From contig JBAZTA010000002.1 of NCBI GenBank assembly GCA_041662125.1, forward strand, positions 9,064-73,063: DNA of 64,000 bases. Direction: 5' to 3'. The notes beneath the pieces were generated by a model. That model was not told the origin of the DNA, made no database searches, and saw nothing but the letters and a program-made list of their open reading frames with translations. A program made the translations under genes and the position numbers. Each line of letters starts with the position of its first letter. The stretch's first letter is position 1. The DNA is from Candidatus Omnitrophota bacterium (GTDB lineage Bacteria; Omnitrophota; Gorgyraeia; Gygaellales; Profunditerraquicolaceae). Below, piece by piece: positions 6,001 to 64,000 of the stretch.

Positions 6001-9000
6001 ATCATCTGTTAACAAGAAAGCAATCTCTTATCGCTTACAAAGGAGATTTAAAAGAGTCAGCAGGTCAGCATAATAGTGTGCTTATTGAAGCAAGTGCTTC
6101 AGAAAAAATTGAATTTACGAATTATTTTACTACAAATATATTTAGTGAAACGAATACTATATTAGCTTCCTTATGTGAAGGTAGAAGTATTACAGTTGTC
6201 GTTGATGAAGTTATATTTGATTTATATAAAGATGCGGTGAGGAACTATTTAGAAAAACATAAGATTGCATTCACTTTGTATCCTTGGGCAGGGGCAGAAA
6301 GTAATAAGAATTTAGATTCAGTTTTAAGAATGATTAGTAAAGCAATAGAAGATAAAAGGGATCGCAAATCAATTTTTGTGGCAATAGGTGGTGGAGCATT
6401 AATGGATGTTGTAGGATTAGCAGCTCAGCTTTACAGAAGACAAATAGATTACATTAGAATTCCTACTACTTTGCTAGGGCTTGTTGATGCAGCGGTTGGT
6501 GTCAAAGTGGGAGTTAACTATGAAGGGCATAAGAACTTCGTCGGTAGTTTCCATGCCCCTTATGCCGTTATTAGCGATTCAGCTTTTCTTAGTACTTTAG
6601 ATGCAAGACAAATGAGGGCGGGTGTAGCAGAAATATTAAAAATAGCGATAGTATCCGATAAGGAGCTTTTTGAGCAAATTGAACAATGGGGTAAACAGTT
6701 AATTAATAATGAGCCATTTCATAAGAAAGATGGGATTATTAAACGGGCAGCTGTTGAATTATTGAAGCATCTTCAGCGCGACTTTTATGAAAGAGATTTA
6801 ATGAGACATGTAGATTTTGGCCATACTTTTGCCCATCAAATGGAAGATATGAGTAGATATTCATTATTGCATGGAGAAGCGGTAGGTATAGATATATTGT
6901 TCTCTAGTTATATTGCATTGCGGAGAGGTATTCTGCCAATTCTTGTTTTCCATAGGATTGTCAATTTGATTAAAAGTTTGGGATTACCTTTATTTGATGT
7001 CTCAATTAATTTTAATGAAATATGGAATGGTATAGAGAAAGCTAAAGCTCATAAGGGCGGCAAGCTTACAATGGTAATTCCTAAAGAAATCGGGCAGACG
7101 GTATTTATCAATTCTTTATCTAAACAGGAGATTAATGGAACCCTGGTTTATTTTAAGAAATTAAATGAAAACACGTTTCAACAAGATTCAAGTAGCCCGG
7201 TAAAATCAGAAAGGCGAGTTAAGATTGAAGAAAAACTAGCGGCGCAAGATCTGGAGCATAAGGTATATCTGATAGAACAAAAGCATATTAAACAAGTAAA
7301 AGATTTGTTTGTAAGGGGTTATGACTTTGATGTAGTTTATCATCCTGTGGAGGACTGGGATTCTGGTAAGCTATTCTCGTACTATGGAGAATTTGAACAG
7401 GTAGAAGACCCGGATGCTGGTAAGCCGTTCTCTCACTATGCAGAATTTGAATCTGCTGATAGGCCGGAAAGATTAGAAATTGTGGTCAAATCAAGCAGCG
7501 GGATAATATGGGCTTTGCCTCCAGAATTGCTGGAAATAGCATTAACTATTAGGTGTAACTTAAAGTGTCTTATTTGCTCAAGGTTTAACAATGACTGGCG
7601 TAAACAAAAATTAGCATATATATCTTTAAAGCATTTCGAGCATATTTTTTCCTCATATGATTATCCATTTCCTCGCATCCAGTTTTGTGGCACCTCAGAG
7701 CCAACGCTTAATCCTCAATTGGTGGATTTTATTCACTATGCTGCAACAAAAATGGCTTCCGGAAAAGAAATAGAGCTTATTACTAATGCTATATTACTCA
7801 CTCCTGCTCTTAGTATGGCATTAAAGGATGCAGGATTAACTTTATTAAAGGCGAGTATTGACGGCCCGGTTGAAGAAAGGTCACAAGGCGCCCCTCGACA
7901 AGCTCGGGGTAAACAGGTCTCAGGTCGCATGTTACAAGATTTTGGGTGTTTGGTGGGAGCAAGAAGCTCGACTTCACCCTTACGCGCTATAGATCAGGTT
8001 TTAAATAGTGAAAATAGAGTGTTTGGAAAGAGTATGATCCAATCGGTTATGCCTCGCGCTCCTCCGGCTATATATTCATCCGCTATTTCTATAGAAGCGA
8101 TTGGTAGGACGTTAAACCATTCAAGCAGCGCGATCACTGAAGCTCGCAACCGGCGCATATTACAGAGAGTGGTGAATTTCTTGTCAGTGAGAAATGAGTT
8201 AGAAAAAGTTGAATTGATGATGGTGTTGGGAAGTCCTGATTTGCGAATCCCGGAAGTTGCCGCTGAACTGTATAAGCAGGGTTATGCATTTAAGATAATT
8301 ACTTCCGGAGCCAGAGGCAGATGGGGTAATCAAGATTGGAAACTGACAGAAGCGCAGATTTTTAAGAAGATAATGGTAGAGAGAGGCGTGCCGAAGAAAG
8401 TTTTCTTACCGATGGATAGAAAAGCTACTAATACGGGAGCGAATTTGAGGAATATTATTGCTATTCTGAAGAAAAAGGAGATAAAGCCGGAGAGTATTTT
8501 ATTGCTTCAGACGCCTATTTCACAGAGAAGGACATGGGCTAATTTTACCCATGATTTTGAAGCGGAAAAAGGTTATTTCGGAGCAGTTAAATGTGTCAGT
8601 TATGCGCCGTATATCCCTGATGTGGCAGCAATGAGTTATGAGGAATTCTACAAGTTGCTTATTTTTACCTGGGGAGAAATAGAGCGGCTTGTTGAATATA
8701 CCTATAACGGTTGGTTAGATAAAAAGTTATCTAGAGTTTCTAAGAAAATGGTGATGCAAACAGCCGCAGCTTACATGGATGAACGAAAGAAAGAATTAGC
8801 TAAAAAGTTAGTTTCCAGTAGCCCGATACAATATACCGTTAATCGGTACCAACCTCAGGTTTATAGTGTTGATATGTGGGTTAATAAAGTTCCGAATGGA
8901 AGATATTATTTCAATAGAAAAACCAGCGTGGTTGAAACAACTATGCCTCATGATCCCAAAGCGCATGTTACAAAAATTGTAGGCAAACCAATAGAAGAAG

Positions 9001-12000
9001 CATTGGCTCAATATCAAAAGGGATTAGATAAGGATAGAATGTTGGTTAACCTTATCTTAGATGGTGACCTTTATAATAATGATTATTCCTGGACTTTTGT
9101 AAACGGGAAAATATATACTAATACCGAAGAAACAATTGAATATGCGGAGAACTTATGGTTAAAAGATATATATTTTTCCTTGATCATTCTCGAAAATGGC
9201 AGCTGGTCTATTGAAGATGTGAGAGTTAGAAACTTTGAGAAAATAGTCCATGATGATGGTTCTATAGAGTTTGTCGGCGCCAGGGTCTATCGTTTGGGTG
9301 GATCAGAGATAGAAAACGTTAAATATGCCAAATCGTTGAAAAGAAGGGTAGTCAATGGGCAGGTTGTAGATGTTGCTGATGTAGCGCTAGATTGCGCGGA
9401 TATGAATTGGCTGTTCAGGCTGCCGTTATTTAAGAAATTACAGACTGAAAAATATCGCGAGCTGTATTTTGGGACTGCAGAGTTGGCTACGGATAAGAAA
9501 AAGAGAGTTTTAGCGGCAGGCGGAGAAACTGTTGAACTTGGTTTAGCCGAATTAGACACTTTAGTATTCGGAAATAATTTAGCTGAAGAATATAAAGAAG
9601 CATTAATTGAAAAGGTGTTTGGAGATTGGGGATACGAGCGGGTAAAAGAAACAAGTGATATCATTGCCAGAGGCCAGTATGTTCTCGACCAGCAGAATAA
9701 CAAAGTTATTCTCAAGTTATTAGAAGGTATCAATCCTTTGAATCTGATCGGTATTGATAATGATGGTAATTTAGTCACTGTCGAGATCCATGGGGAAGCT
9801 CGTAAAGCAGGTGATTTGAGCACCGGGACAACCATGAATAAAGCCGCTCTTCTGATGAAGGAATTAGGTATTGTTAACGGCGGCATGTTGTCAGAGAGTA
9901 AAGATGTAAAGTGGTATAACTCGGATGGTACTTGGAAGTTCCAGTATGAAAATACTACTGCTATGGTATTTGTGACGAAAACAAAATCTGCCGGCAGCCC
10001 GATCCGCGCATTACTAGTTATAGTTGGTTTATGGGGTATAGTTTTTATTATTTGGCGTATATTCAAGAAATTGAACAGCCACTTGTTAGTAAAGCAAGTA
10101 GATATGTTGTTAGATAATACAATCCTAAGTTTATTTTCAAATCTGCACTATATTAATACCGAGATATTACAGATAGTTGAGCCGGGAACGGTTATTTTGT
10201 CAGAAACTGTAATTTTTGTGCCTAATTTATTGGCTGAATTTGATGATTCGCGTGTGGCTATAGTACATGGAGAAGGTAAAGGTAATGCTTTTATACGAGT
10301 GTCAGCGTTAAGGCAAGTTAATCCAGACAGAATTAATGATTACCATACACTTGTTTGGGAACTCCAGCGAATGGGATATACCATTAAGCATGTGGGATAT
10401 GTAGCATTTGAGAACGTTGATCTTAGTTCAGGGAAAACAAGCAGCCCGATTTTAGGAGAGTTTAGAATTAAGTGGTATCTCTGGAAACTAAGTAGTTCTG
10501 ATTCGTTCATTCAAGAAAGGGCATATAAAACTTTAAGTGAATTAGGTATAACTGTGTTACAGGTGATTCAGCGTTATAAAAAGGACGATAAAATATTAGA
10601 GGTTATTAATCGTAACATAGATTTCTTAAACTGGTATTTTAAGCGGGAATCTGTTTACAAGATTACTTGTGAATCTGGGGAGCGATGGGGAAGCGATGGG
10701 GAAGGGACAGGAGGAGCTTGTTTAAAGTCTTATTTTAATGCTAGTAGGGAGTTGGTTTATAAAGGGTATATGCGTAAGGGTGTTGGAGCAGAGGTGGACT
10801 TTGAGGAGTATGGGGAAGAGGTGGAATATCATAGTGCTGATGAATCTGAGCCTTGGTCAACTCCTTGGAAAGTGGAGACTTTTTATCGCCGTAAGATTGA
10901 ATTAGCTTTAGTGGAATTGAAAGAATTCGCTTTATCTCTTACACAGGAAAATGTGCAAGTAAAAATACACGAGTTGATGGTGAAGGCGAAATCCAGTAGT
11001 CCGATTGAGGATATACAGCAGATCACAAGCTGGGAGTCTTCTGAGGCAGTGTTTGTGTCAGAAATGCCGCTGGCCGAGGCGCCGGAATTGCTTGAGATAG
11101 AGACGTCCAATAAGTGTAATCTAGGCTGTGTCATCTGTTTCCATTCAACCAAAGAAATTAAGCAGGAGAAGCCTGCATATTTGCCTTTGCAGGATTTTAA
11201 ACGTATTCTGGATTCCTATGATTATCCTTTACCGAAGGTCCAGTTCTGCGGTTCTTCAGAGCCGACACTTCATCCTGAATTGCCGGGTTTTGTTGCTCAT
11301 GCAGCAATAATGGATCAAGGTAAAGGAGTGGAGTTGATCACGAACGCCACGCTCCTTACGGCTGAACTTGCAAAAGCTTTGAGCGATGCAGGGTTGACTT
11401 TATTGAAAGCAAGTATAGACGGTCCTGATGAGGTATCATACCGGGCGATCAGGGGACATGATCTTTATCCTGTATTGCGAAATCTTACAAGACTTTCTGA
11501 AATAACCAGTATCCCACTTTGGATAAATTGTGTGGTTACTCAGTATAATTTTAACAAACTCGCTCATATGCCTGCTCTTATTGCTTCTGTCGGTGCAAAA
11601 TATCTTGCTTTTAGGCTCTTTGAATGGCAGACCTCTAAGATTGGTACAGTAGGTTATTATGATAGCAAAGAGCTTAAAAATATGCTCGCGGCCGTGAAGG
11701 AAGAATGTGTAAAGAGAGATATCGTATTGATCTATCCGGATATAACAGAGACAGTAAATAAGGAATGTTTCTTGCAAAAAGAAGCGAATGTTAATCATCG
11801 CGGATTCTTGACACCTTGTTATTATCAACCTCGGGAATCCGTGGGTGAGAAATTAGGAGCTCGAGAGTTCTCTCAGGTCTGGAACAGCGAGGTAATGCGG
11901 AGAATCAGGGCGAATATCAATAATGGCATATATCTGCCTGAATGTTGTTGTTTGGATGCGATCTTCGCTCAGACTCAAACTGATCCTCAATTTCATTATC

Positions 12001-15000
12001 GTTCCAGCAGCGCGATGATGGGTGCCCATATAGGTAAAGGCGGGGACACTCTTGCAATAGTTGCAAGAAATGATGAGCGAGGAGTGACTCCTGCTACTTT
12101 ATCTTTACAGCTTGAGGTGAAGGATTATGTAGCGGGAGATGTTTCTGTCCCGGAGAAGAATTTTAGAATGCCTCACCAGGAACTTATATTTGTGGAAAAG
12201 GGTATAGCTAAAGTAATGCTTAAGGATATCTTGCCTAAATCTAAGGCTCAGTCAACGGAATTGTTCCAAGGAGATTCTGTCCTTAGCTTAAAGGATTTTA
12301 GGCTCAGCTTTAAAGAGCCCTCCACAGTTTCTGTCGTAAGGCAAACCCTTGAATTGAATGTTCAGAGGAACTTATCTGAAGAATTACCTGTAAGAGAGTT
12401 TAATGGGATACAGTTTCCAGAATTTATCTATGATGACAAAGGTGAATTGCTAGGTCTTGTGTTAAGGAGAAATATCGAGCCGCAGATATTCAATGTAATC
12501 ACGACAGCCTCATTTCCGATAGGCGTGGGAGTAAAACTGCCTCCAGAAACTAAGTATGCGGATAAAGCAATAGTACAGTGTCCTCGTGATAGACAAAAGG
12601 CCAAGATATTATTTTCTACAAAAGGCAGCTTAAGCGTACGTGTTTTTGACCGGGATGATACGCTTTTTAGTGTAGAAACTTTATATCCAGGAGATAAGAT
12701 CATTCTGTTGAGCGGGCATAATGTTAAATTCAATGATACAGTAAATAAACTTCTTGAAGCCGTGGAAGGGCCGTTTGAAGGAAAAGAGTTTTTTATAGAC
12801 AAGGGATTGATAGCCAGCAGCCCGATTGAAGGCGTACTATTTACCAAAATATTGAAAGCAGAAGAGTTTGAGAGTTCTGAAGAACTGCCGTTAATCGTAG
12901 AGACTATTTTTCTATTAAAGAAGGAACAGCTGCCTTTGTCAGGGCGTACACAAAAAGTAGTATATGTAGAAACTGGAAGCCTTGTTGTGACTCTGAAAGA
13001 TACTAAAACAATGTGCACCGTAGATACCGCGGACATAATCACAGTTTTTGAGCCGGCTAGCTTATATGCATTGAGAGATTCATTTATTACCATAATTAGA
13101 GAAGGCAAAGCAAATTTAAAACGCGGCCCTCCGGCAGATTCAAAGATAATTCCTGATTTAACACAACGTCCTCGTCAGTCTCCTGAAGGTGTCGCCTATC
13201 CTGAGCTTATCTTGGATACTCAAGATAAGCTATCCGCAATAATTTACAGAGCTGCCAATATATATCCAGAAAAAATGTATCCGGTCAGTATTCCTTCCGG
13301 CGCGATCGGTATTGGCGTAAAAACTGTCAACGGACCGGAAAAGCTGCATATCGAGCCGGATAACTATATGGAAGTTCTGATCGTTGTCAACGGCAGATCA
13401 CAAGCTGCATTTACCGATTCAAATTGGAACAATCCAATCTCAACAATAATTAAATCCGGCGAAAAAGTGATCATTTATCCTAACACCGGGCATGGATTTA
13501 TCTATACGGGTTGCAAGATGCTCGTTGTTATGCAAGGCCCCTTTACCGGTAATCCTAAAACGTATCCTTTAGAAAAATCCAGCAGCCCGGTACTTACTTC
13601 TGATGCGATTGTTTCACAGTGGCTTAAGTTTAATCATCCTCCTCAGAGCGTTATCCTTGGTGATGCTTTGGTGAATGTTTTTGTGACCCGGCAGGGCGTG
13701 AGCGGTTGGAATAATCATATTGCCGGCGGCACCGGACTCTACGCGAAGATCATTCCTTCCTTAACGCTTGAAGATGGTCGTTCCATTATATTTGTTGTGG
13801 GAGATATATTAGCGGTCAAGGATATTAAGCTATTGTATAAGGATGCGGAATTCTCTGAAAGTGTTAATGCTTTTGAACGCAAGGCGCGCAGGCTGCAAAC
13901 TCTTGAGCAGATGCGTTGGCCTCATGAAAGGGTTCTTTTACCCATTGTCAGACTTATGGGCTTGATGGCAGAAAAGTACCGTTTGAACGGCCGTAGTGTC
14001 ACCTTCGATTACGACGATGATAATTCCATGATACAAGCTATTGCAAGGAAAACGCTCATCTCGCTTTTATGGATACTCAAAGAAAATAATGATTCTGAGT
14101 TAGCTATTTACTTAAGCCAACGGCGTATGGATTTTGAAAAGCTCATCGCGCTTCCTGAATATGAGCTGCGCAAGTTTCCCCCTCACTTGTTTTTAAGAGC
14201 TGATCATATCCGTTGGCAGCACTATTATGAAAGCCGTAAGCATGCAGCAAATGATGATTTTCGGCAGTTGGCAGCTTTGAGAATGGAAAGCTATCCGCTG
14301 ACAGTAAAACATTTTGATATTGAGATGGTGAAATGGTTTGAGGCTTATCAGAAGCTCGGCGATTATTTGGATATTGGCTTTGAATCAGTATTCTCTCCGA
14401 TGCAAGAAGAACATGTTTCTCTGAGCCTGGCCACAGCTGCTCTGCGCGCTTTCCTTACAATTCTTTTTGAACGTCAAGACATGGTATTGCTGACTTTCGA
14501 ACGGATGAAAGGAATATCCTATGAACAGCTCTTATCTTTGTCTCGTCAAGAGCTCTTGTCTTTGCGCCTTGATCAGGTATGGTTAAGGGCTGAAGAGCTG
14601 CTTTGGCAGGAATATTCCGCAGGCAGGGATACTGATCAAGAAATCTTGCAATTTTCCCGCGAGCGTGAATTTATTTTGCGCAAGAATGAAGAGATCAGGC
14701 TTATGTCTGAGATCAATGCTTTTATTTCACAAGGCATGGGAGAACGCTTGGCAAAGAATATGGATGTGGAAGTAGAGATTGTTCAGTTGACCGATGAGCA
14801 GATAGAAAGTTCTTTAGGGATAGAGAGGTTGCGATCTGATAATGGGCAGCCAATTCAATTGAACGCCTGCACTTTCCCAGGGCTTGTTGGAAGATTAGCA
14901 TTTTTGTATGGAGACGGTGGTTATGTGCAGGGTGTTTCAGAATCAGGGGCGCTCTTCCCGATAGATTCTCAGGCTGATTTTGTAGAGGCTTTGGCGCGCG

Positions 15001-57000: not shown

Positions 57001-60000
57001 GTTTAATGGAAAGCGGCTATAATGTTACCTCTACTTTTCACATGTTTCTTTCTCCGAGGTTAGAAGAAACAAGGGAACAACAACCGTTCCTTGCCAGATT
57101 AATAGAATTGGAGCGAGAAGCCATCGCGGCAAATGCAAAAATAATCGTAAACAGTGTAATGATGAAAAGAGAACTCCTAAGATTATGCCCTGATTACATG
57201 GGAGATTTGTTTGTTATCCCTAATGGCGTCGATGAATATCATTTCGAGATGAAAGAATTTCCTCAGAACAAAACACCGATAATATCTACTTACGGCAGGA
57301 TTTCCCCGGAAAAAGGTTTTGATATTTTTATAGAAGCGGCGAAGATTATAACCGAAAGAAGGCGCGCAGATGGTAAGCAGCCGGTTGATTTCTTGTTGTT
57401 CGGTAAGACTGATGATAGTATAGAAATTAGAAGGAAGTATAAGGAGAAATTGGAAAAATCAGCTGCTGGTTTTGATAATATCAGGCTTATTATGACGCCA
57501 GAAGGCGTGTGGGGGGCAAATAGAATAAGGCTTATCGATGAGAGTTGGGTAGGAGTAGTGCCGTCACTCTATGAGCCGTTTGGTTTGGTTTTGACGGAAT
57601 ATATGTCACGAAGAAAAGCTGTAGTAAGCACTTTGACGTATGGGGCAAGAGATATACTGGGAAAAAACAGCTTAGGAGAGAAAGGTATAGAAGAAACACT
57701 GTTTGGCCTGGTGGTAAAAACCGACGCGGTTTTTATTGCTGAAGCTATTGAACAGTTATTGAGTGATACTCGGGGAAGGATAGAGAAAGGCAATGCCGCC
57801 GGAAGAAGAGCCCTGGAGATGTATAGATGGCCAAGGATAATCAAAGACATAATTAAGGTGTATCAAAATCATGCGGCGGATCATACTCGCCCAGGAACTG
57901 GGGGGGATTTGTTTGTTTTGCGTCAAGATATTGAACACCGGTGGAATGAGTTAGTAAACAAGGAATTAGCAGAGAGAGTGGAAAATCAAGGGATACGTGA
58001 GGTTGAAACTACTGGGGATTTGAGTAAAGAAGATGGGATTATATGGTTCCCAAGATTGTTAAAATATAAAGTTTTGGATAAACCGGGTGAAATTGTAGAA
58101 TTGCCGGGTCCTTTAGCGTATCAAGAAGGAGAGTGGTTAGTACAATACAATTTGAGCAGGGGCGTCCCGCGCGGCGAAGGACAGGATAAGGCTCCTGTAG
58201 TGAAAGACCAATGTGTATTTTGCAGAATGGTAGGTAATGCTGATAATAAATTTTTGCTTATTGATTTAGAAGAGTACTTTGGCCTGCCATATAAACTTGT
58301 GGCCGACTCGCGCCCATTCTTTGATAGGCATATGCTTATTTTGGAAAAAGGGCATACAGGAGGTATTACTGTTAAAGGTATGAAAGACCTGTTGTATATA
58401 TTTAACAGATTATTCCCCGGCAGGAGAGGTAACATCGGCACCGGTAATCAAGCCGCGCATTTACATATCCATGTTTATGATATCGCTTTTCCTATTGAGC
58501 GTCAGAAGCGTGAGTGGTTATGGCAGGCTCAAGGAGTTAAAATCGGTTTGTTGGAGAACGGAATTGGTACCGCGGGATTTGTGGTGGAAGGAATTGATGC
58601 CGGTAGCTTGGCAATTAATTCATTTTGGCTTTTGGGCGAATTAGAAGCTTTGGGTTGGCTCATGGTGGTTATGACTGCCCCTCACCAGGTTTACATTATA
58701 CCGCAGAAAAGCAAGGAAATAGGCGATGCCTATCCGCCGATATTAGATGCATTTAAAAAGAACAGGCCAATTGGTATGCGGCCGCGTTATGTTGGCCCGG
58801 TCGAAGTAGCGGGTATTTGGCTTTGTTACAGCCGCGGGGATATCCACGCGATGGAAATAATGTATGAAACAATAGATTTGGAAATATATAAAAATATTTT
58901 GCGGGATACCGGAGTTAACAAAAGTGACCCGGGTGTAATAGATATAATTAATAAAATCTCTGCAAGGCAAGCATCTTCCAGTATTAAAACCGATCAAATT
59001 AAACATTTGCCGATTGATCATTTAATTGACGAAAAATGCATCTTTTTAGAGTTACACTTGACGAACCAATGCAACCAAGATTGTGATTGGTGCAGCTATA
59101 AAGAGGTCAGAAACTTTGAATATATCAAATTCGAAGATTTAGATAACGTGGCTTCTCTATCTCCGGAAGAAATCTTGATTGTTGGCGGAGGAGAGCCTAC
59201 TCTGTATGAAGACGCAGGTAAGGATTTTAATGATGCGGTGTTACGGTTAAGAAAGCTTTTGCCAATGGTAAAAATCAGGCTTATAACCAACGGAACATAC
59301 ATCCCGGAAGGGCTATGGTATAAGGAAATATCAGAAGTCAGCATATCCTTAGATGCGACCACGAGGGAAGATTATTTCAGAACGAAGAAAGTAGATTTAT
59401 TCGTTAAAGTTTGGGATAAGATTAATTGGTATTTCCGGATAAGCCGTATACCCATCGTGAGAGTTACCATGATCTATAATAAAGATAATTTGAGTAATGC
59501 GATTATCTTGGCAAGAAAACTCTGGGAGGTAGTTACAACACAAAAAGAGGGGGCTCCGGCCAATACGTCAACGTTGTGGTTTATGATATTTCCTATGGCA
59601 AATGATAAAAATTTCGCCGCGCCATACGAATCGACCGAATTGAACGATAAAGAGAAAGAAGATTGGAAAGAGAAGCTGGAAGAAATCAAGAAAACAAACT
59701 ATCCTTTTTGGGTTTTCTTAACTCAAAATACTAATCTTGCCACTCAACCATTTCGGAGGCTTTTCGTACGGCCGGCTCACTGGTGTTGGCAGGTTTCAAA
59801 TTATGTGATAGTGGGCGCGGATGGTAATTTCTATCCTTGTTTCGCAGTGTGCGAAACGCATAGAATAAATCATTTAGGATCATTGAACCAAAGCGCCAGA
59901 CAGCTTAGGGATAAGAGGGTGCAAATATTCAGAAATCCTCCTATGGAATGTAGAAAGGGTTGCAGGCCGATTACTACTTTTTACGGGATAAAATCAATGG

Positions 60001-63000
60001 GAGCATTAATTGATAGGTTTAAGCGGGATATTTTACCTATGGATGCCTATGTAATTAGCTTTTTTGACAAACGCGCAGAAAATGTTGAGGTCGCAGGCGG
60101 CAAGGGTAGTAATCTTTATCGGCTGAGCACATTGGCCCATACCAAGAAAGATTTATATATTCCTGAAGGGTACATTTTAACGTCGGAATTATTCTGCGAT
60201 ATGGTTGTGGAACAGGAAGGGCTTAAGGGGAAACTTGTGAAATTGGAAAGTTTATTTGAGGAATCAAAGATGCTTCCCGCGGGTGATAAGGTAAAAATAC
60301 AAAGCCAAATTAAAGAAATCTCAGAAATGATACAGCAGGTAATCTTAAAAATAAGTATACCAGAAGAAATTCAGGACAGGGTATTCATTTTGTTTAAGAT
60401 TCTAGGAGAGAGAGTCGCAGTAAGGAGTTCGGCTAATATTGAGGATGCTAATAATATTTCTTGTGCTGGTCAGGCAAAGACTATTTTAAATGTTATCGAT
60501 GAGGGGCAACTGTTAGAAGCTATTAAGGCAGTATGGGCAAGTTTATATGATTATAGTTTTTTAGTTTATTGTAAGGAAAATAATGTTTTATTAGAGAATA
60601 TAAAAATGTCAGTTATTATTCAGGAAATGGTTGATTCAATTGCCGCGGGGGTTGTCTTGTCTGTTGATGAGCAATCAAAACGTCCCGCTTTTATCATTAA
60701 TGCCAACTTTGGCTTCGGGGAATCGGTAGTGAGGGGGAATATTATCCCCGATAGTTTTCTGGTAGGTCCTGATGCAAAGCACATCTTAGATGTAAAAATA
60801 GGCTCTAAAAATAAAAGAGTCGTGAGTGATGAAAAGGGAGGAATAAAAGAAATAGATGCCGTGGGGCAAGATGTTGTTTCTTTGGATGATACAATGGTCT
60901 TAAGAATAGCTGCTGTTGTTCGGTCTATTAGGGATTATTATAGAGAACGAGGTTTCGCAAAACACGTAGATGTCGAGTTTGCTTTAGAAGAAGGCGCTGT
61001 TAAGGTATATATTCTTCAGTGTCGCCCGGTAACATCACTCCAGAATAGAAAAAGAATAAAAATAAAAACGGCGGTGCACGATTATTGCCCGGAAATCCCT
61101 CGGATAGAATTTCGCTCAGGTGTAATAAGCAACAAAGGTGCTGTGTATGGTAGATTGCAAGTGATCTATGATTCTGAAGGGTACGATAATGTAGAGGAAG
61201 GGGCGATATTGGTTACATCTTTTACCACAAACAGATGGAATGATGCGTTTAGGAAAATAAAAGGCGCTATTTCTGATTTAGGTGATAACGGAAGCCATAC
61301 GGCTATAGCTTCTAGAGAGTCATGGTGCAACGTGCCTTCTTTAGTGGGGACTTCTCATGCAACAGCGCTATTGCGGGAATGGGATGGAAAGATGGTTACT
61401 TTTGATTCGCGTTTGAAAACTGTGTTTCTAGGCTGGTTATCCATAGAAATAAGGGAAATAGATATTTCTTTTTGGGAAGATGACGATGCTTTGGAAACAA
61501 CTCAAGATGATTTTGATGCTGATTCATGGGATCAGCTTAGTAAAAGGCAGAATGCTCGATTAGACTTTGAGGGGGCATGGTTTGCTAAGCCACTAAAAGA
61601 ATACAGTTACTTTCAGCTTAGTTATTATGATAGGGCATTTGACGTTATTTACGAAATACACAAAAGATTTAATTGGCCAAATAATGCTTTTCAAAACAGG
61701 GATACCGTTATTGAGCCGAGGAAAAGAAAAATCAGAAACGGGATTATTTATGTTGAAATAGATCCTTCTCAAATAATTGGAGCGTTGGGTAAGTTTTTCT
61801 TTAGCTTAACGTTGGAGGGTTATGAGTATTTATTGGAGAGAAGATGGGAGTTCTATAAGCAACTGGAAAGTTTTTCCGGTGAATTGCAGGAAATAAACGC
61901 TTCTAACGTAGAAGTAGTCGTCAATATGTTGGTTGATGTTTTGTCTTGGAGTACTATGGTATTTGAATTAGATCATGTTTTCAAATATAGGTTTCTTAAT
62001 CCGCAAAAACGGTGCATTTCTCATGAGGGGGACTGTAATTATCAGGAATTAGCTTCTAAATTCGCTTTACTTAGGTTATTCCCGGAAAGGGCCAGGAGTT
62101 TAATTAAAGAAAAGACAAAGCAACTACGGATAATCGCTGAGATCGTCAATAGAGACCTTGAGGCTAAGGAGATTTTTCAAGCAAATGACAGTGAAGTGTT
62201 TAAAATAGAAAAACCCGAAATTTGTAAAAGAATCAACAGCCTTTCCCGCCAATATAAGCTTAATTCAGAGGATATCAGAATAAGTTGTGATTTTGAGGGG
62301 AACTTTAATCTTGTAGGCGAATATTTGAATAAAAAGATGCCCTTTGAAGAACTTGTTGATTATTGTGAGAGTTATTTTAAGAAAACAGACGCTGGTTTAT
62401 TAAACTCCGCCGTGTGTTCGGAAAAAGAAATTAGTTTGTTGTTAAGCGGTTATCTGCGGATCAATGAAAACCTTAGTGCCCAGGACCGAATATCTGAACG
62501 CATCCCCGGCTTAGTCGATGAAATAAAAACTAAAATTAGGAAAAATGAAAGACATGCGGAAACAGTAATAGATGCGTTAAAAACATATCCCCGCATGGCA
62601 AGAGTACTTGCTATAGGAAAACAGAATGAAATTATTAGAAACGATGCGCACCATATTATATCTCGATATCAGCGAAAAATATGCCCTATGATGTTAGCGG
62701 TGGCGCGAAGGCATAGGCATGTTTTGGGTGATGAATTACATATTTTTGATTTAAGTATAGAAGAATTTGTTGCTTTGTTAAAAGAAAAAGACCCTTCATA
62801 TCTCAAACATACATTTGAGAGAAACAAAAGAATTGAAGTAATTGAAGAAGCGCTGGAAATAACTTGGGAAAAGAATAGAATCCTAGCCGTAGAAAACTAT
62901 GAGAAAGGTCTTCAGGGGGTATTCAATATTTTAGATATGCAATTAAGCCAATCTGCTGAAGTCAATGTTTCGGGGTATTACAATAAATTAAAAGTAAAGT

Positions 63001-63920
63001 ATATTTCTCGTCTAGGAACATTAAGATTACTAGCGGATTCTATGAGTATCCAAGAAAAAGAGTGTTTAGATGATGTTCAAAAAGAAAAAGTATTTTCCAC
63101 ATCGTCTCCGGTCAAATATGCGAATTTGCCAAGAGTTAAAGACAGGTTTTCCGTCACGGCGTTTTTATCAGTCAATAGACAATGGTTAGTTTATCAAGGT
63201 CAAGCAACTTCGCCTTTGGCAATTCCTGAACGGGGTTTTTCATCATATGTTCTTGTTTTTATTCTAAGCTTTTTGAACGCTTGCGCTCCTCCTGCTTTTA
63301 TTCGCAATATTCCGACTTCTCCGTATCATATTCCTGCGTCTATTGAACGCAAGCCCGCTAAAGACATAACTTCGGTTTTGACTCCCCGGAAATCTAAATT
63401 GCAATCTGGCATTTTTACTCTCCACGATATTAGACAAAGAAAGGGTAGTTTAAGTATAGATGAATCTTCCAAGGTCATTGGCAGGCTTTGCGGTATTGAT
63501 TGGCGTTTTGTAGCTGAACGTCTCGGAAGAAAGCCGTTGATCGTCCCCGCGTATATCCCGGATTATCTGCAGTATAGCCCGCTGCCTCCAGTTATCAATA
63601 AAATAAAAAGCCATCACAAATTTGTCCTTATCGTGAAATTTATTCACCATAAAAATATTGAAGGAAAAGCGTATCCGTTCCCGGTTTCTTTCCTTGGTAT
63701 GTATGCGCGAGGAAAACTTGTGCGCTCGTTTCAGGTGGGGATCGGAGAAAATCCCGGAAATACACCATTAGGCTGGCACAGGATCACCCGGTTTGACCGC
63801 TGGCATAAATCAAGCTCATATAAGACGCCTGACGGGCTTCCCGCGCCGATGTATTGGGGCCTACAATTGGACGGTAGCCGTATATGGTTACATCAGGGGA
63901 CGATTGCCGCTCCTCTTTTA
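3..63920 (+). CDS. Giant multidomain protein, 5'-partial. At least 21,305 codons lie in the window, ending at TAG 63918-63920, which is probably not the true terminus.
   Basis: No stop codon in frame 0 (codon starts divisible by 3) from nt 3 to 63917. The frame was confirmed by direct codon reading at 3-13140, 16500, 18120, 19584, 22740, 25833, 27183-27700, 28020-28560, 30300, 30900, 31539-31620, 32700, 33360, 37182, 44952, 46779, 52662, 53544, 57555, 58452, 59040, 60084 and 63720-63920. Every listed + strand ORF is in frames 1/2 and 92 aa or shorter. Conserved catalytic motifs occur in frame 0 throughout. Confidence 0.9.
438..770 (+). other. Type I phosphoribosyltransferase (orotate/purine PRTase-like) domain
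   Basis: Translation RLSVVGKYTGGLITGLLLAQKLNLPF ... GAIVVDDEMTKGNVIVNTNRALDALGVKVEANVIVLQS. The PRPP-binding motif is the acidic-hydrophobic VVDDxxTxG (645-690). Confidence 0.6.
3972..4960 (+). other. NAD(P)-dependent epimerase/dehydratase (extended SDR) domain
   Basis: Rossmann motif ITITGHTGDIGTELARF at 3972-4020. Later IYASSQRVY (4320) and RISNVYGPG (4572-4598) match the NVYGP motif typical of NAD-dependent epimerases. Confidence 0.6.
4995..6000 (+). other. ROK-family sugar kinase-like domain
   Basis: N-terminal DIIVFDIGGTSVRAGIYN (ATP-binding DxGGT) at about 5001-5040. A zinc-motif-like SLCDCGGRGHLGSVASGRAAE lies at 5541-5600; the ROK consensus is CxCGxxGCxE and the second Cys is His here. 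Confidence 0.6.
6150..7100 (+). other. Dehydroquinate-synthase-like sugar phosphate cyclase domain (DHQS / 2-deoxy-scyllo-inosose synthase / EEVS superfamily)
   Basis: SIFVAIGGGALMDVVGLAAQLYRRQIDYIRIPTTLLGLVDAAVGVKVGVNYEGHKNFVGSFHAPYAVISD...RAGVAEILKIA at 6372-6660. Metal-binding FGHTFAHQME...LLHGEAVGIDI at about 6810-6900. These match the DHQS hallmarks GGGxxxD, IPTTLL, KN.G.F, GHT.GH and HGEAV. Confidence 0.75.
7500..7885 (+). other. Radical SAM core domain, copy 1
   Basis: IRCNLKCLICS at 7548-7580 (C-x3-C-x2-C), then YDYPFPRIQFCGTSEPTLNP, GKEIELITNAILLTP and AGLTLLKASIDGP. Confidence 0.7.
8210..8550 (+). other. DUF218 (YdcF/ElyC/SanA-like) domain
   Basis: VELMMVLGSPDLRIPEVAAELYKQGYAFKIITSGARGRW ... 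GVPKKVFLPMDRKATNTGANLRNI ... ILLLQTPISQRR resembles the DUF218 pattern (vvLG...R...a..ly..g....ii.SGg ... S.nT.eNa ... vlvT...H..R). Confidence 0.45.
10008..10076 (+). other. Predicted single transmembrane helix inside the giant ORF
   Basis: ALLVIVGLWGIVFIIWRIFKK: about 20 consecutive hydrophobic residues followed by basic residues. Confidence 0.5.
11080..11960 (+). other. Radical SAM core domain, copy 2 (paralogue of 7500-7885), with a C-terminal Cys-rich extension
   Basis: ETSNKCNLGCVICFH at 11100-11145 (C-x3-C-x2-C). YDYPLPKVQFCGSSEPTLHP, GVELITNATLLTAELAKALSDAGLTLLKASIDGP are about 60% identical to copy 1. Downstream Cys cluster LPECCCLDAIF (about 11935), possibly SPASM-like. Confidence 0.7.
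16500..19600 (+). repeat. Tandem module A (~3.1 kb): N-terminal helical/beta region plus a GlgE-like alpha-1,4-glucan:maltose-1-phosphate maltosyltransferase (GH13_3) catalytic domain
   Basis: GlgE hallmarks in frame 0: PEVARFGTWYASFPRSFGGF (18120-18180), [80 protein letters not shown]. The module starts with QSSSSAIE (16503) and ends with KKSSSAIS (19584). Confidence 0.8.
19600..22760 (+). repeat. Tandem module B (diverged copy) with a GlgE-like catalytic domain
   Basis: Collinear with A and C at about 60-70% aa identity: ARFGTWYESFPRSFGGF (21250), [66 protein letters not shown]. Ends at ASSAIVAASSAI (22746-22781). Confidence 0.8.
22760..25860 (+). repeat. Tandem module C (about 90% nt identity to A) with a GlgE-like catalytic domain
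   Basis: 22801-22920 is nearly identical to 16541-16660. VARFGTWYASFPRSFGGF (24370), [35 protein letters not shown]. Ends at KKSSSAIV (25839). The A to C offset is about 6255 nt, also mirrored by duplicated antisense ORFs in the track. Confidence 0.85.
27305..27571 (+). other. Embedded alternative-frame (frame 2) ORF with a canonical RBS inside the giant ORF. Status uncertain: possible overlapping gene or chance ORF.
   Basis: TAATAA (27284-27289, frame 2), then AAGGAGG (27292-27298), a 6-nt spacer, and ATG 27305. 88 codons to TAA 27571. Frame 0 stays open across the whole interval. Confidence 0.25.
27640..28260 (+). other. Cluster of about 5 predicted transmembrane helices (membrane anchor preceding GGDEF)
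   Basis: Hydrophobic stretches FLSLGLGALCGFYKFDFVNLPFVFVTILLLAVIIS, ILITFLSPLLILHKI, GGYVYVMALEALTMIITLPYGVLPAFLYLFVVSIVPYSL. Confidence 0.55.
28290..28800 (+). other. GGDEF diguanylate cyclase domain
   Basis: RDPLTGAYNRRYLDEEL ... [30 protein letters not shown] ... DSLFRYGGEEFCLAL (GGEEF at 28548-28562) ... RADRALYEAKESGRNKVV. Confidence 0.85.
30250..31110 (+). other. RelA/SpoT-homologue module: HD (hydrolase-type) domain plus (p)ppGpp synthetase-like domain
   Basis: HD part: GVHGIILVLADKLASGRHLETVEERISWANEVHCIYAPLAEFLKLEGL (30345-30480; compare IKLADRLHNMRTL and IYAPLAxRLG). Synthetase part: DVFGVTIISRQRNDVYHILSYL and GIQAQWNEHVVFINIEGVPCEVQIFSREDWKAKQMFDRPHWVYKL (30890-31020; compare EVQIRT...HW.YK). 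Confidence 0.7.
32180..33230 (+). other. Maltokinase (Mak/Pep2)-like aminoglycoside-phosphotransferase-fold kinase domain
   Basis: RIHGDFHFSQILR at 32721-32759 (Mak catalytic RIHGDLHLGQVLR). YIIIDLEGEPLASPHQRWEKKTPLQDVAGAIRSFGY at 32770-32880 (Mak: IDFEGEP...PLRDVAGMLRSFDY). Confidence 0.7.
33360..35330 (+). other. GH77 4-alpha-glucanotransferase (amylomaltase / MalQ-like) domain
   Basis: GVFAPLAYWRSEHDWGTGDIDVLLKVVDFSKGMNLSPLQLLPLNYPLGDNCPYHIASTYYLDPVYI at 33366-33560 matches the GH77 N-terminal signature (G.F.PL.SL.S..WGIGDF ... Q.LPL......SPY.S.S.FA.NP..I). LRIDHLLGYYRIY and VMENLGVVPQE fit later GH77 motifs. Confidence 0.75.
36160..36260 (+). repeat. About 33-aa beta-strand motif, copy 1 (YTLSFQWPGNRENGGWEGRGYRLWVLDQGE)
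   Basis: Second copy at 39165-39265 (YTLSFRWPEKQTNSGWEGRDYYFRVLGENE). Looser relatives occur in the N-terminal parts of the GlgE modules, so this is possibly a carbohydrate-binding / domain-S-like unit. Confidence 0.5.
36640..37720 (+). other. GH13 (alpha-amylase superfamily)-like catalytic region
   Basis: Conserved region II GFDGFRVDLAYEL at 37182-37220. YFVLEVYGEVP follows, consistent with region III (E). The rest is uncharacterised, so subfamily and activity are unknown. Confidence 0.45.
39300..40640 (+). other. TPR-like helical repeat region
   Basis: Recurrent 34-aa amphipathic patterns, e.g. AEALVVFDHAVAQ...LDEALVVYEEALRIASDNYAKAQ and DDKALNSFSQVLSIYP, with W/LG/Y/A/F/A/P-type spacing. 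Confidence 0.5.
44060..45060 (+). other. GT9 (heptosyltransferase-like) glycosyltransferase domain
   Basis: KRVLILTIPKMDYGAELVWSLIMNVLAMHN near the N-terminus. C-terminal VVTPDTFVMHAAIAAGKWVITPWGN at 44949-45020 resembles the GT9 DSGPMHLAAALGTPTVALFGPT motif. Confidence 0.45.
46440..46600 (+). other. Two predicted transmembrane helices
   Basis: WFMGMVMGTFIGVIICDILKF and VYVVYIIGACALLGIVIYSFI. Confidence 0.5.
46690..47110 (+). other. Class I SAM-dependent methyltransferase domain
   Basis: Motif I VLSVGCGDATL at 46779-46811. Acidic end of strand 2 (VIGADKS), FDVVLFPELIGHL, and post-motif LKEGGRIIIAT. Confidence 0.65.
47950..49020 (+). other. FkbH-like HAD domain followed by a GNAT-like acyltransferase region
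   Basis: VKCVVVDADGVLWGGIVGEDG at 47958-48020 (FkbH: DLDNTLWGGVIGEDG). LAINSKNN and LFLDDSVHERE match HAD motifs II/III. C-terminal IIDTFCLSCRAIGRTVEWAFMSNVVD is GNAT-like. Confidence 0.5.
50560..50960 (+). other. Second RelA/SpoT-type HD (metal-dependent phosphohydrolase) domain
   Basis: YFSHLIDVVKMLLVDCKL...VIIIAAILHDSLEEKDITDEVLLEIFGPRVYRIVKLLTK...IARLIKMVDRIQNVATM (compare AALLHDvvEDT...FG..va.lV.gvTK...IKLADRLHNMRTL). Confidence 0.6.
51430..51960 (+). other. HAD-superfamily hydrolase domain
   Basis: Motif I ILLDMDQTLY at 51442-51471. Motif II LAIATNN. Motif IV SIGDRKEFDLYSAARIGIAGI. Confidence 0.65.
52540..52900 (+). other. Nudix-like hydrolase domain with a degenerate Nudix box
   Basis: AFVVTPENKILLQRRAPGRAYELYLSIFGGHLKAGQGYVEAIREELQQELHL (box-like at 52662-52730; canonical Gx5Ex7REUxEExGU is only partly satisfied). 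Confidence 0.4.
53540..54560 (+). other. Gfo/Idh/MocA-type NAD(P)-binding oxidoreductase domain
   Basis: ADIVVVGAGKIGTMAGGIIG at 53544-53603 (Rossmann). TPDHMHYGSIRRLSDIGVKKFILEKPVS matches the EKP motif of the family. Confidence 0.55.
54940..55330 (+). other. Cupin-like beta-barrel domain
   Basis: GVNAHLVRINKNTSVPHFHVKQQDELYLIM ... GEIIYIPTGIGHQADN (two-His/Glu spacing typical of cupins). Confidence 0.35.
56640..57900 (+). other. GT4/GT5-type (GT-B) glycosyltransferase domain
   Basis: N-terminal IKVVHVSYQDPSHLAGGQGVAVLNICEALVLKGYE. C-terminal VVPSLYEPFGLVLTEYMSRRKAVVSTLTYGARDIL at 57555-57660 (E-x7-E motif). Confidence 0.65.
58180..58510 (+). other. HIT-like (histidine triad / GalT-like) domain
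   Basis: CVFCRMVGNADNKFLLIDLEEYFGLPYKLVADSRPFF ... NQAAHLHIHVYD (HxHxHxx at 58458-58478). Confidence 0.5.
59040..59990 (+). other. Radical SAM core domain, copy 3, with a C-terminal Cys-rich region
   Basis: LHLTNQCNQDCDWCSY at 59055-59100 (C-x3-C-x2-C). ILIVGGGEPTLYED at 59175-59215. Downstream cysteines AHWCWQ...YPCFAVCE...MECRKGC, possibly SPASM-like. Confidence 0.7.
60050..61060 (+). other. PEP-utilising-enzyme ATP-grasp N-terminal domain (PPDK_N-like; pyruvate-phosphate dikinase / PEP synthase / glucan-water-dikinase type)
   Basis: VEVAGGKGSNLYRLS...IPEGYILTSELF (60084-60190) and VAVRSSANIEDANNISCAGQAKTILNV (60418-60500) match the vGGKganL / VAVRSSa.EDl..sfAGq.dT.ln signatures. Confidence 0.6.
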
Positions 63921-64000
63921 GAGAAGCGTGAAAATAGCCTTTATCGCGGCTCACACGGGTGTATCCGCGAACAGGAGGAAGATGCCTCACGGTTGTTCAA
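63738..64000 (+). other. L,D-transpeptidase (YkuD/ErfK) catalytic domain, interrupted by the frame-0 TAG at 63918. The catalytic Cys motif lies in the -1 (frame 2) reading.
   Basis: Frame 0: IGENPGNTPLGWHRITRFDRWHKSSSYKTPDGLPAPMYWGLQLDGSRIWLHQG then RLPLLF*. Frame 2 from 63899: EIAAPLLEKRENSLYRGSHGCIREQEEDASRLF (compare YGIHGT...SHGCIRMxNEDxxELF). The junction is at the GGGG run 63896-63899. Confidence 0.65.

Follow-up and report, generated by a model that had tools for sequence, protein, structure and literature searches.

Giant genes of 30–440 kb are common in Omnitrophota. The giant proteins described from this phylum include an 'Archaeovorin' type, for which autoproteolysis through C39 or S8 domains was considered possible and the cleavage points were stated to be unknown (West-Roberts et al. 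2023; 10.1101/2023.11.21.568195), and a 'multi-enzyme metabolic cluster' class, which was presented together with its topology (Nielsen & Lui 2026; 10.64898/2026.06.07.730766). Open reading frames (ORFs) of this kind have been called poorly understood (Seymour et al. 2023), and the published work asks whether the giant products act as one chain or are cut. No junction motif is described in West-Roberts et al., Nielsen & Lui or Seymour et al., which represent the literature incompletely, and the text of Nielsen & Lui is also silent on linkers and cleavage. Here we analyze a 64,000-nt stretch of a Candidatus Omnitrophota genome (contig JBAZTA010000002.1, positions 9,064–73,063; hereafter the window), which lies within one such ORF, and a short serine motif that recurs along it. 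Three independent lines of sequence evidence, namely domain limits, recombination breakpoints, and conservation or replacement of the motif in relatives, strongly support the view that this motif marks cassette junctions in a multi-enzyme giant protein.

Six-frame translation of the window gave no stop codon in the frame of nt 3 and 746–1973 stop codons in the other five frames. The window therefore lies inside a single giant ORF (nt 3–63998, plus strand; at least 21,332 codons) that is open at both window ends. Pfam, NCBIfam and PDB-sequence searches identified ∼25 distinct Pfam families spread along the chain, with none dominant, among them methyltransferase, HAD, HD, GT1, radical S-adenosylmethionine (rSAM), ROK and NUDIX families. 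A PRTase-type module is followed by a unit composed of an NAD-epimerase, a ROK kinase and a sugar-phosphate cyclase (DHQS-like). The chain also contains three or four rSAM modules, DUF218 and an NAGPA-like domain; three tandem GlgE-like modules of ∼1,020 amino acids (aa) each; a ParE-like segment; a GGDEF module with two transmembrane (TM) segments; a RelA/SpoT synthetase, maltokinase, MalQ and TPR repeats; a TM-TM-methyltransferase module; HD (ppGpp hydrolase-like), HAD, NUDIX and GFO/IDH/MocA modules; and a GlgM-like GT4, a module similar to phosphoenolpyruvate (PEP) synthase and rifampin phosphotransferase, and YkuD. The window thus belongs to a giant gene for a multi-enzyme protein, like those known from Omnitrophota, with cassettes that resemble complete enzymes or small fusions. 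In common with the described giants, it has more than 10,000 codons in one ORF and the same set of Pfam families (PF08241, PF13419, HD, PF00534, PF04055, PF00480, NUDIX and GGDEF). A Kyte-Doolittle hydropathy scan gave ∼7–8 strong hydrophobic segments, which are putative TM helices scattered along the chain. Several of its database relatives are named Candidatus Omnitrophota, although these are more distant than the only close relative, L001, which differs in being labeled 'uncultured Planctomycetales'. SecA_DEAD and N-terminal C39 or S8 domains were not found in the window (Pfam, and PDB-sequence searches of nt 3–13580 and 25839–63998) and may lie beyond the open ends of the ORF.

The motif SSS[PAG][IVLM] occurs 23 times in the ORF, compared with an expectation of 0.27 in 2000 global shuffles (maximum 3) and of 0.35–0.49 when residues were shuffled within blocks of 10, 20 or 50, which keeps the local composition. 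The looser form SS[PA][IVLM] is found 38 times (2.5–3.4 expected), and in all the motif recurs about 40–50 times at joints between enzyme modules. Among all 4-mers of the chain, SSSP, SSAI, SSPI and SSSA show the strongest over-representation (P 1e-13 to 1e-17). Twenty-six of the 37 SSS tripeptides are located within or directly before an SS[PA][IVLM]-type site, and seven more belong to the variant SSS(S)[IV]. The enrichment is confined to Ser-Ser, as ST, TS, TT, AS and similar pairs before [PA][IVLM] occur at chance level, and replacement of either Ser by Thr, Ala, Gly or Asn also gives chance counts, save for a modest excess of GSP[IV]. The flanks are almost information-free, with the exception of Lys or Arg at position −1 in 11 of the 23 sites; Ser (1.4–1.6-fold) and Lys are mildly elevated in them, and they are neither of low complexity nor clearly hydrophilic. 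The consensus is [K/R]-S-S-S-[P/A]-[I/V], with the looser forms SS[PA][IVLM], SSS(S)[IV] and GSP[IV]. An earlier, sequence-only reading of the window had reported recurrence of the motif far above chance, and the counts, which exceed both global and within-block shuffles, make this case stronger than it was first stated. All coordinates given there fall in the frame of nt 3, with the peptides present within a few nucleotides. The sites are real but the list was incomplete, as it omitted at least 3960 SSSAI, 29493 SSSPI, 41586 SSSAV, 42696 SSSAI, 45588 SSSAL and 47313 SSAI.

The distribution of the motif relative to predicted domains is the first line of evidence. The 34 Pfam envelopes take up 24% of the chain, yet not one of the 38 SS[PA][IVLM] sites falls within them (9.0 expected, P ∼1e-4). 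Several domain limits are very close to the motif: the epimerase profile begins at the Ile of an SSSAI motif, HAD starts 2–5 residues past SSPL, with position 1 of HAD_2 at five residues, and TPR starts four residues past SSPI, while GLGE_C ends 5–10 residues ahead of an SSSAI-type motif in all three GlgE-like copies and the complete GGDEF profile (161/161) ends 10 residues ahead of SSSAI. Positions 2–6 of full-length NCBIfam models (HAD, two rSAM and MalQ) map 5–34 residues after a motif, with positions 2–3 of the HAD models at module residues 5–9, and the end of the maltokinase model is 17 residues ahead of the next motif. Such tight limits indicate that the segments between motifs are whole proteins or fixed fusions of a few. 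No SS[PA][IVLM] is present inside the epimerase-ROK-DHQS unit (1,076 aa) or the 2,155-aa stretch that contains the GT, rSAM and PEP-synthase-like modules, so the motif delimits cassettes and not individual domains. The earlier placement of the motif at domain boundaries is therefore borne out by the envelope count and by the sites 0–10 residues from domain ends, but in the epimerase-ROK-DHQS unit and the 2,155-aa stretch it does not hold for every boundary. Predicted TM helices or signal-like segments directly follow several motifs (aa 3336, 15482 and 21080).

The second line of evidence comes from recombination breakpoints. A scan of a genome collection identified one close relative, L001 (CAZPNW010000011.1; 11,146 nt), which likewise consists of one stop-free frame (3,714 aa). 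L001 and the window form a mosaic, with 85–93% nucleotide identity in the shared parts, and in nucleotide alignments the identity starts or stops within a few bases of motif codons. All six internal block ends of L001 are at most seven residues from a motif (P ∼3e-9, based on 3.75% of positions being within 10 residues of a motif), and L001 itself contains six SS[PA][IVLM] sites vs 0.41 expected. Paralogous units within the window (the rSAM unit, a ∼215-aa unit, the GlgE-like copies and a 90-aa unit) also start or end at motifs; for example, the rSAM unit that follows the motif at aa 2497 is paralogous to that after SSSPI at aa 3664. As judged from these alignments, relatives evidently differ by the gain, loss, duplication and re-ordering of cassettes, and the breakpoints of these changes lie at the motif. 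The G+C content of the motif-delimited segments ranges from 0.35 to 0.53, which is consistent with cassettes of different history. A word-indexed protein search with aa 2376–3700 gave no match, and the lineage of the window is absent from the collection that was searched. A metagenome scan with an alignment of the GlgE-like modules returned only ordinary free-standing GlgE proteins (650–680 aa, in normal operons; L002–L007), in which the motif is absent. The region of L001 that has no counterpart in the window (L001:2940–7325) encodes Maf-like, ARMT1-like phosphatase and dihydrouridine synthase (Dus) modules, i.e. housekeeping-type enzymes in a giant ORF.

More distant relatives provide the third line. 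In an exhaustive HMMER search, the epimerase-ROK-DHQS unit, extended by 30 residues at either end, matched multi-enzyme proteins of 1.7–5.6 thousand residues, of which P0009, P0011 and P0015 are named Candidatus Omnitrophota. The seven top matches over the whole 1,076-aa unit (P0001–P0005, P0010 and P0011) align from query residues 19–34 to 1096–1108, and the motifs of the query are located at residues 31–35 and 1107–1111, i.e. at the ends of these alignments. P0003 (L012:455–8818) is a complete gene of 2,787 aa with a signal peptide and is collinear with window aa 1–2415 (42.5% identity over 2,415 aa). It has SSSI ahead of its PRTase-type module and SSSSAL exactly aligned with SSSAI of the window, even though the surrounding linker residues differ. 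In P0009, SSPL precedes the epimerase, and in P0001, SSPL is found ∼20 residues past the DHQS unit and the matching alignment end. In two relatives the same joints carry a different peptide. P0011 (L008:6693–23552; 5,619 aa, a complete gene from the NCBI metagenome-assembled genome GCA_030698625.1) contains six copies of RSELR vs 0.017 expected, and P0010 contains four copies of RSE[TISM]R vs 0.08 expected. In both proteins, RSE.R is located 12 residues before the epimerase, and another copy precedes the PRTase-type module; these are the joints at which the window has SSSAI and SSSI. RSE.R is also found at the start or end of blocks duplicated in P0011 and of blocks whose arrangement differs between P0011 and P0010. 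Within the 33.5-kb P0011 locus, neither the neighboring genes nor the remaining frames contain RSELR, and the window contains no RSE.R (0.37 expected). The presence of two unrelated fixed peptides at homologous joints speaks for a factor that recognizes the motif specifically and co-evolves with it. Punctuation of the kind proposed for the window is also present in related multi-enzyme genes, as an SSS-type motif in L001, P0001, P0003 and P0009 and as RSE.R at the same joints in P0010 and P0011. Together with the domain limits and the L001 breakpoints, these homologous junctions uphold the earlier description of the motif as a conserved marker of module boundaries.

Several observations on the relatives concern gene structure. 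P0003 has a conserved ∼360-aa domain upstream of its first SSSI and stops ∼60 residues past the DHQS unit. Given this layout, the ORF of the window may start only a few hundred codons upstream, and it may be a P0003-type gene extended by many added cassettes. The P0011 punctuation is also seen in the form (D)RSELR. A natural N-terminus of P0002 at the epimerase joint was considered and ruled out, as the frame is open to the contig edge and the protein is truncated. P0152, a 3,218-aa 'carbamoyltransferase' of Candidatus Magnetomorum sp. HK-1, which is not a member of Omnitrophota, matches 39% of window aa 1–2415 at 32% identity, so related multi-enzyme fusions exist outside Omnitrophota.

Codon usage at the motif shows that it is kept by selection on the peptide and not on DNA. 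Ser codons of the motif (AGC 28%, TCT 24%, TCA 16%, TCC 13%, AGT 12% and TCG 6%) are used at frequencies near those in the rest of the ORF, and because AGY and TCN codons share no base, it is the peptide that is conserved. The earlier claim that the sites share the nucleotide core AGCAGCCCGAT was overstated and is largely wrong: Ser codons are mixed and the core is exact at only two sites. It is present with at most one mismatch at eight, seven of which are located between 8.1 and 13.6 kb. A joint or scar of DNA-level recombination, in the form of a recombinase site or of microhomology in AGCAGCCCGAT with a functionless peptide, would fit the L001 breakpoints within a few nucleotides of motif codons and the clustering of these eight sites in the region where most L001 differences lie. 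However, most sites use other codons, including those of the TCN family, at background frequencies, the core occurs only in frame and never on the other strand, the motif is still present at homologous joints of proteins with 42% identity, a divergence at which a nucleotide signal could not be retained, and the six RSELR copies of P0011 are encoded by six different codon strings. Joints of integron cassettes of the attC type differ from the motif in the same respect, as the motif is not conserved as nucleotides. Codon diversity rules out a shared core, an RNA element and a recombinase site as the signal, so this explanation is already largely refuted, and we regard it as very improbable. Translational punctuation, in which internal initiation or termination-like events give separate proteins from one mRNA, is more improbable still. 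The last motif residue is one of those (Ile, Val, Leu or Met) that near-cognate start codons specify, two L001 sites have Met (ATG), one of which is homologous to SSSPI at 8814 of the window, and the module starts coincide with N-termini of free-standing homologues. Many of the last-position codons (GTA, GTT, CTT, CTC and TTA) are nevertheless not start codons, and a start-codon role of this residue is ruled out by codon identity. There are also no conserved upstream nucleotides that could act as a ribosome-binding site, RSELR does not fit, and we know of no bacterial mechanism that releases a chain without a stop codon.

The reading that we favor, with a probability of about 0.5, is that the motif is a putative cleavage site of a lineage-specific endopeptidase and that the giant chain is a polyprotein. 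Such an endopeptidase, encoded outside the window or elsewhere in the genome, would recognize the motif and divide the translation product into pieces of cassette size, in the manner of viral proteases acting on their polyproteins. In effect, the gene would be an operon without stop codons, and its products would be set free post-translationally, some of them with their own N-terminal membrane anchors or export signals. Since the same in-frame peptide is present at the joints, recombination there would give viable in-frame chimeras, which would explain the cassette mosaicism. A short fixed site with free flanks, located at most joints and replaced in a lineage-specific manner, resembles the pattern of polyprotein cleavage sites, and a motif swap between lineages would be typical of co-evolving pairs of protease and site. 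Processing is weakly supported by predicted TM anchors right after motifs and a lipoprotein-like signal 45 residues past one, which are N-terminal features of separate proteins, and, also weakly, by single TM helices between cytoplasmic-type modules, which are awkward for one uncut chain. More tentatively, the same scheme might extend to Omnitrophota-type giant ORFs in general: these could be cellular polyproteins that are cut at lineage-specific punctuation (SSS[P/A][I/V] or RSELR) by a co-evolving endopeptidase, releasing dozens of ordinary enzymes, with cassette arrays that grow and reshuffle by recombination.

Several points weigh against processing. A proteolytic site had been among the mechanisms suggested earlier, and it remains the one that fits best, but we only infer it, and no peptidase domain was detected by Pfam in the 21,332 aa of the window or the 3,714 aa of L001. 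These Pfam searches covered the whole window at a threshold of 1e-3 and selected stretches at 0.05, as well as L001 and the first 1,550 residues of P0001, likewise negative, and PDB-sequence searches of the two parts of the window given above gave no peptidase either. P0002, P0004, P0005 and P0151 have no detectable punctuation motif, so processing at such a motif is not universal in the family, and some long multi-domain stretches of the ORF are also devoid of it. The flanks show no obvious signs of disorder or hydrophilicity, and the first strand of the following domain often comes directly after the motif, which leaves little room for a protease. The TM predictions come from a simple hydropathy scan, and a single-sequence AlphaFold2 model of aa 17040–17420 (pLDDT 34) was uninformative.

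The main alternative to cleavage is that the motif is an uncleaved inter-module linker, hinge or docking peptide in an intact giant chain. The motif would then act either as a small structural spacer or as the docking point of a partner, for example a chaperone, a scaffold or one of the chain's own domains, by which the modules are organized along the chain. Its position at boundaries and its conservation as a peptide fit this explanation as well as they fit cleavage, and the lack of a detectable protease in the window and L001 favors it. Furthermore, unprocessed multi-enzyme fusions exist, such as the AROM polypeptide, which is among the PDB matches, and P0004, P0005 and P0151 join their modules without any motif. 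A passive spacer, however, needs no fixed sequence, whereas the motif is near-invariant between free flanks, and the unrelated, equally fixed motif at the same joints elsewhere suggests that the sequence is specifically recognized. An uncut chain is also hard to square with predicted single TM helices between cytoplasmic-type modules, and we consider the uncleaved linker somewhat unlikely. A modification site, at which O-glycosylation or phosphorylation of Ser regulates or protects the joints, is improbable. Three Ser followed by Pro resemble targets of Ser-Pro kinases or of glycosylation, and Ser/Thr phosphatase domains have been reported in giant Omnitrophota proteins (10.1101/2023.11.21.568195). 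Nonetheless, Thr is not accepted in place of Ser, Pro can be exchanged for Ala and the SSSI variants have neither, RSELR contains one Ser in a quite different context, and no kinase or glycosyltransferase is specifically tied to the motif. The sequence-only reading had also offered glycosylated or phosphorylated linkers, an idea that gained no positive support: in contrast to Ser/Thr/Pro-rich glycosylated linkers, the motif is a fixed 4–5-mer, and its flanks have near-background composition and no low-complexity Ser/Thr/Pro tract.

Polyprotein processing can be compared with described systems in which one chain carries many functional units. Viral polyproteins (with picorna-like 3C/3CL, potyvirus NIa or coronavirus Mpro proteases) share with the window a 4–6-residue motif at most junctions of one product, which is positioned between complete functional units and is kept within a lineage and replaced in others. 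They differ in that the gene described here is cellular and encodes metabolic and signaling enzymes, no cis-encoded protease was found in the window, and cleavage is only putative. To our knowledge, the product of the giant ORF exceeds any viral polyprotein tenfold in size. Bacterial giants also include the MARTX toxins, in which recombination reshuffles effector modules between strains and an internal cysteine protease domain (CPD) sets the modules free by cutting inter-module linkers. Their CPD cuts after Leu, unlike the SSS[PA][IV] site, the modules of the window are ordinary metabolic enzymes, and neither a MARTX-type CPD domain nor RTX repeats were found in the window with Pfam. In multi-cassette precursors of ribosomally synthesized and post-translationally modified peptides (such as cyanobactin PatE), identical short recognition sequences flank each core and are read by dedicated proteases, and the cassettes vary between constant flanks. 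The cores are 8-residue peptides, in contrast to the enzymes of 200–2,000 residues in the window, where no PatA/PatG-like protease was seen. AROM and the fatty-acid and polyketide synthases also contain several complete enzymes in one chain, and the DHQS-like part of the window matches AROM structures, but their modules serve one pathway in a fixed order. We know of no repeated fixed junction peptide in these unprocessed multifunctional enzymes.

With this motif, a concrete candidate is available for the first time for the sites at which Omnitrophota-type giant proteins may be cut or hinged. It gives exact positions at which to ask whether the giant chains are cut, as RSE.R does in the other lineage, and the sites can be used as split points for structure prediction of giant proteins. 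If cleavage does occur, bacteria would be using polyproteins to express genes of ordinary cellular metabolism; if not, the unit in which the largest known proteins evolve as modules is still defined by the motif. All sites are collected in Table 1.

Table 1. Motif sites along the giant ORF of the window and correspondence of L001 segments (aa, residue of the ORF translation; coordinates are window nucleotides unless stated otherwise)
Feature	Coordinates	Strand	Remarks
Stop-free giant multi-enzyme ORF, open at both ends	3..63998	+	stop counts; ∼25 distinct Pfam families
SSSI variant (aa 3), just ahead of PRTase-type module	9..20	+	SSSI in P0003, RSE[IL]R in P0010/P0011 at same junction
SSSAI (aa 1320), before epimerase	3960..3974	+	epimerase profile starts at Ile; aligns with SSSSAL of P0003; RSE.R here in P0010/P0011; database matches begin here
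SSSPV (aa 2396), end of epimerase-ROK-DHQS unit	7188..7202	+	51 aa past DHQS_C; database alignments end at query 1096–1108, i.e. this site
SSSGI (aa 2497)	7491..7505	+	position 2 of full-length rSAM profiles 10 aa downstream
SSAI (aa 2692)	8076..8087	+	L001 homology block A ends here
SSSAI (aa 2707), ahead of DUF218 cassette missing from L001	8121..8135	+	
SSSPI (aa 2938)	8814..8828	+	L001 block B starts at motif, nucleotide level
GSPI variant (SAGSPI, aa 3329–3334)	9993..10004	+	L001 block B ends right after; TM helix aa 3336
SSPI (aa 3480)	10440..10451	+	
SSSPI (aa 3664)	10992..11006	+	full-length rSAM profile positions 2–6 ∼30 aa downstream
SSSAM (aa 4001)	12003..12017	+	
SSPI (aa 4272)	12816..12827	+	L001 block C start; internal paralog unit end
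SSSPV (aa 4526)	13578..13592	+	L001 block C end; paralog unit end
SSSAI (aa 5503), start of GlgE-like copy 1	16509..16523	+	
SSSAI (aa 6528), joint of GlgE-like copies 1/2	19584..19598	+	5 aa past GLGE_C end
SSAI-VAA-SSAI doublet (aa 7583, 7590), joint of GlgE-like copies 2/3	22749..22781	+	10 aa past GLGE_C end
SSSAI (aa 8613), end of GlgE-like copy 3	25839..25853	+	6 aa past GLGE_C end
SSAL (aa 9198), relaxed match	27594..27605	+	TM helix 45 aa downstream
SSSAI (aa 9604)	28812..28826	+	10 aa past GGDEF profile end (161/161)
SSSPI (aa 9831)	29493..29507	+	
SSSSI variant (aa 10495)	31485..31499	+	
SSSPI (aa 10531), ahead of maltokinase module	31593..31607	+	
SSPI (aa 11093), maltokinase/MalQ joint	33279..33290	+	maltokinase profile end (525/529) 17 aa upstream; MalQ profile position 5 at 27 aa downstream
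SSSPL (aa 11929)	35787..35801	+	174 aa past GH77 envelope
SSPL (aa 11965)	35895..35906	+	
GSPV-SSPI doublet (aa 13088–13095)	39264..39287	+	4 aa before TPR; internal paralog unit end
SSSAV (aa 13862)	41586..41600	+	
GSPI variant (aa 13880)	41640..41651	+	
SSSAI (aa 14232)	42696..42710	+	
SSPI (aa 14669)	44007..44018	+	
SSSAL (aa 15196), SSSPA at nt 45564 before it	45588..45602	+	
SSSPV (aa 15329)	45987..46001	+	
SSSPV (aa 15473), start of TM-TM-methyltransferase module	46419..46433	+	TM helices 8 and 42 aa downstream
GSPI variant (aa 15556), between TM pair and methyltransferase	46668..46679	+	
GSPV ... SSAI pair (aa 15761, 15771), after methyltransferase	47283..47324	+	71 aa past methyltransferase envelope
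SSSPI (aa 16354)	49062..49076	+	
SSSAI (aa 16407)	49221..49235	+	
SSSSI variant (aa 16623)	49869..49883	+	
SSPL (aa 17139), immediately 5' of HAD module	51417..51428	+	HAD_2 position 1 at 5 aa after
SSSV ... SSSPL pair (aa 17367, 17374), between HAD and NUDIX	52101..52136	+	47 aa past HAD envelope
SSAL (aa 17733), relaxed, could be chance	53199..53210	+	2.5–3.4 SS[PA][IVLM] expected by chance
SSAI (aa 18459), relaxed, could be chance	55377..55388	+	
SSAI (aa 18879), relaxed match	56637..56648	+	
SSSI variant (aa 19658)	58974..58985	+	28 aa ahead of rSAM Pfam start, aa 19686
SSPV (aa 21034), ahead of lipoprotein-like signal and YkuD module	63102..63113	+	
L001 aa 519–583	window aa 2635–2699		
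L001 aa 582–979	window aa 2938–3335		
L001 aa 980–2441			no window counterpart; Maf, ARMT1-like and Dus modules
L001 aa 2442–2701	window aa 4265–4527		
L001 aa 2693–3714			matches GlgE-like modules of window

Further observations concern hydrophobic segments and individual cassettes. A lipoprotein-like signal (...YVLVFILSFLNAC; ...FILSFLNAC) is located at nt 63240–63290, 45 residues past a motif and ahead of YkuD (nt 63699–63998). Its lipobox-like LNAC thus precedes an L,D-transpeptidase domain deep inside the ORF, and YkuD is a periplasmic type of enzyme, yet it is found downstream of ATP-dependent cytoplasmic-type modules. Single hydrophobic helices at nt 10008–10067 and 30315–30371 (aa 3336 and 10105; hydropathy scan only) separate modules that all need cytoplasmic cofactors, i.e. 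rSAM, NAD- and ATP-dependent enzymes, GGDEF and RelA/SpoT. The rSAM module between SSSGI and SSSAI (nt 7491–8135) comprises just ∼215 aa and matches only about the first third of full-length rSAM/SPASM models (e.g. positions 2–147 of 423), and it seems to be a truncated cassette.

The ORF contains a nearly complete set for the GlgE pathway (three GlgE-like modules, maltokinase, the 4-alpha-glucanotransferase MalQ and the GlgM-like GT4, at nt 16509–25853, 31593–35801 and 57000–58000), which suggests alpha-glucan metabolism as one of its themes. Second-messenger enzymes are present as separate cassettes, namely the GGDEF cyclase with two TM segments (nt 28311–28787), the RelA/SpoT-type synthetase (nt 30669–31019) and the HD ppGpp-hydrolase-like domain (nt 50556–50942). 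A ParE/RelE-type toxin-like segment (PF05016, E 1e-4) is located at nt 26799–26999, between the last GlgE-like copy and the GGDEF module. The G+C content is 0.35 at nt 3–7187 and 0.50–0.53 in two of the GlgE-like copies, and GC skew on the coding strand is positive throughout the window (0.07–0.38).

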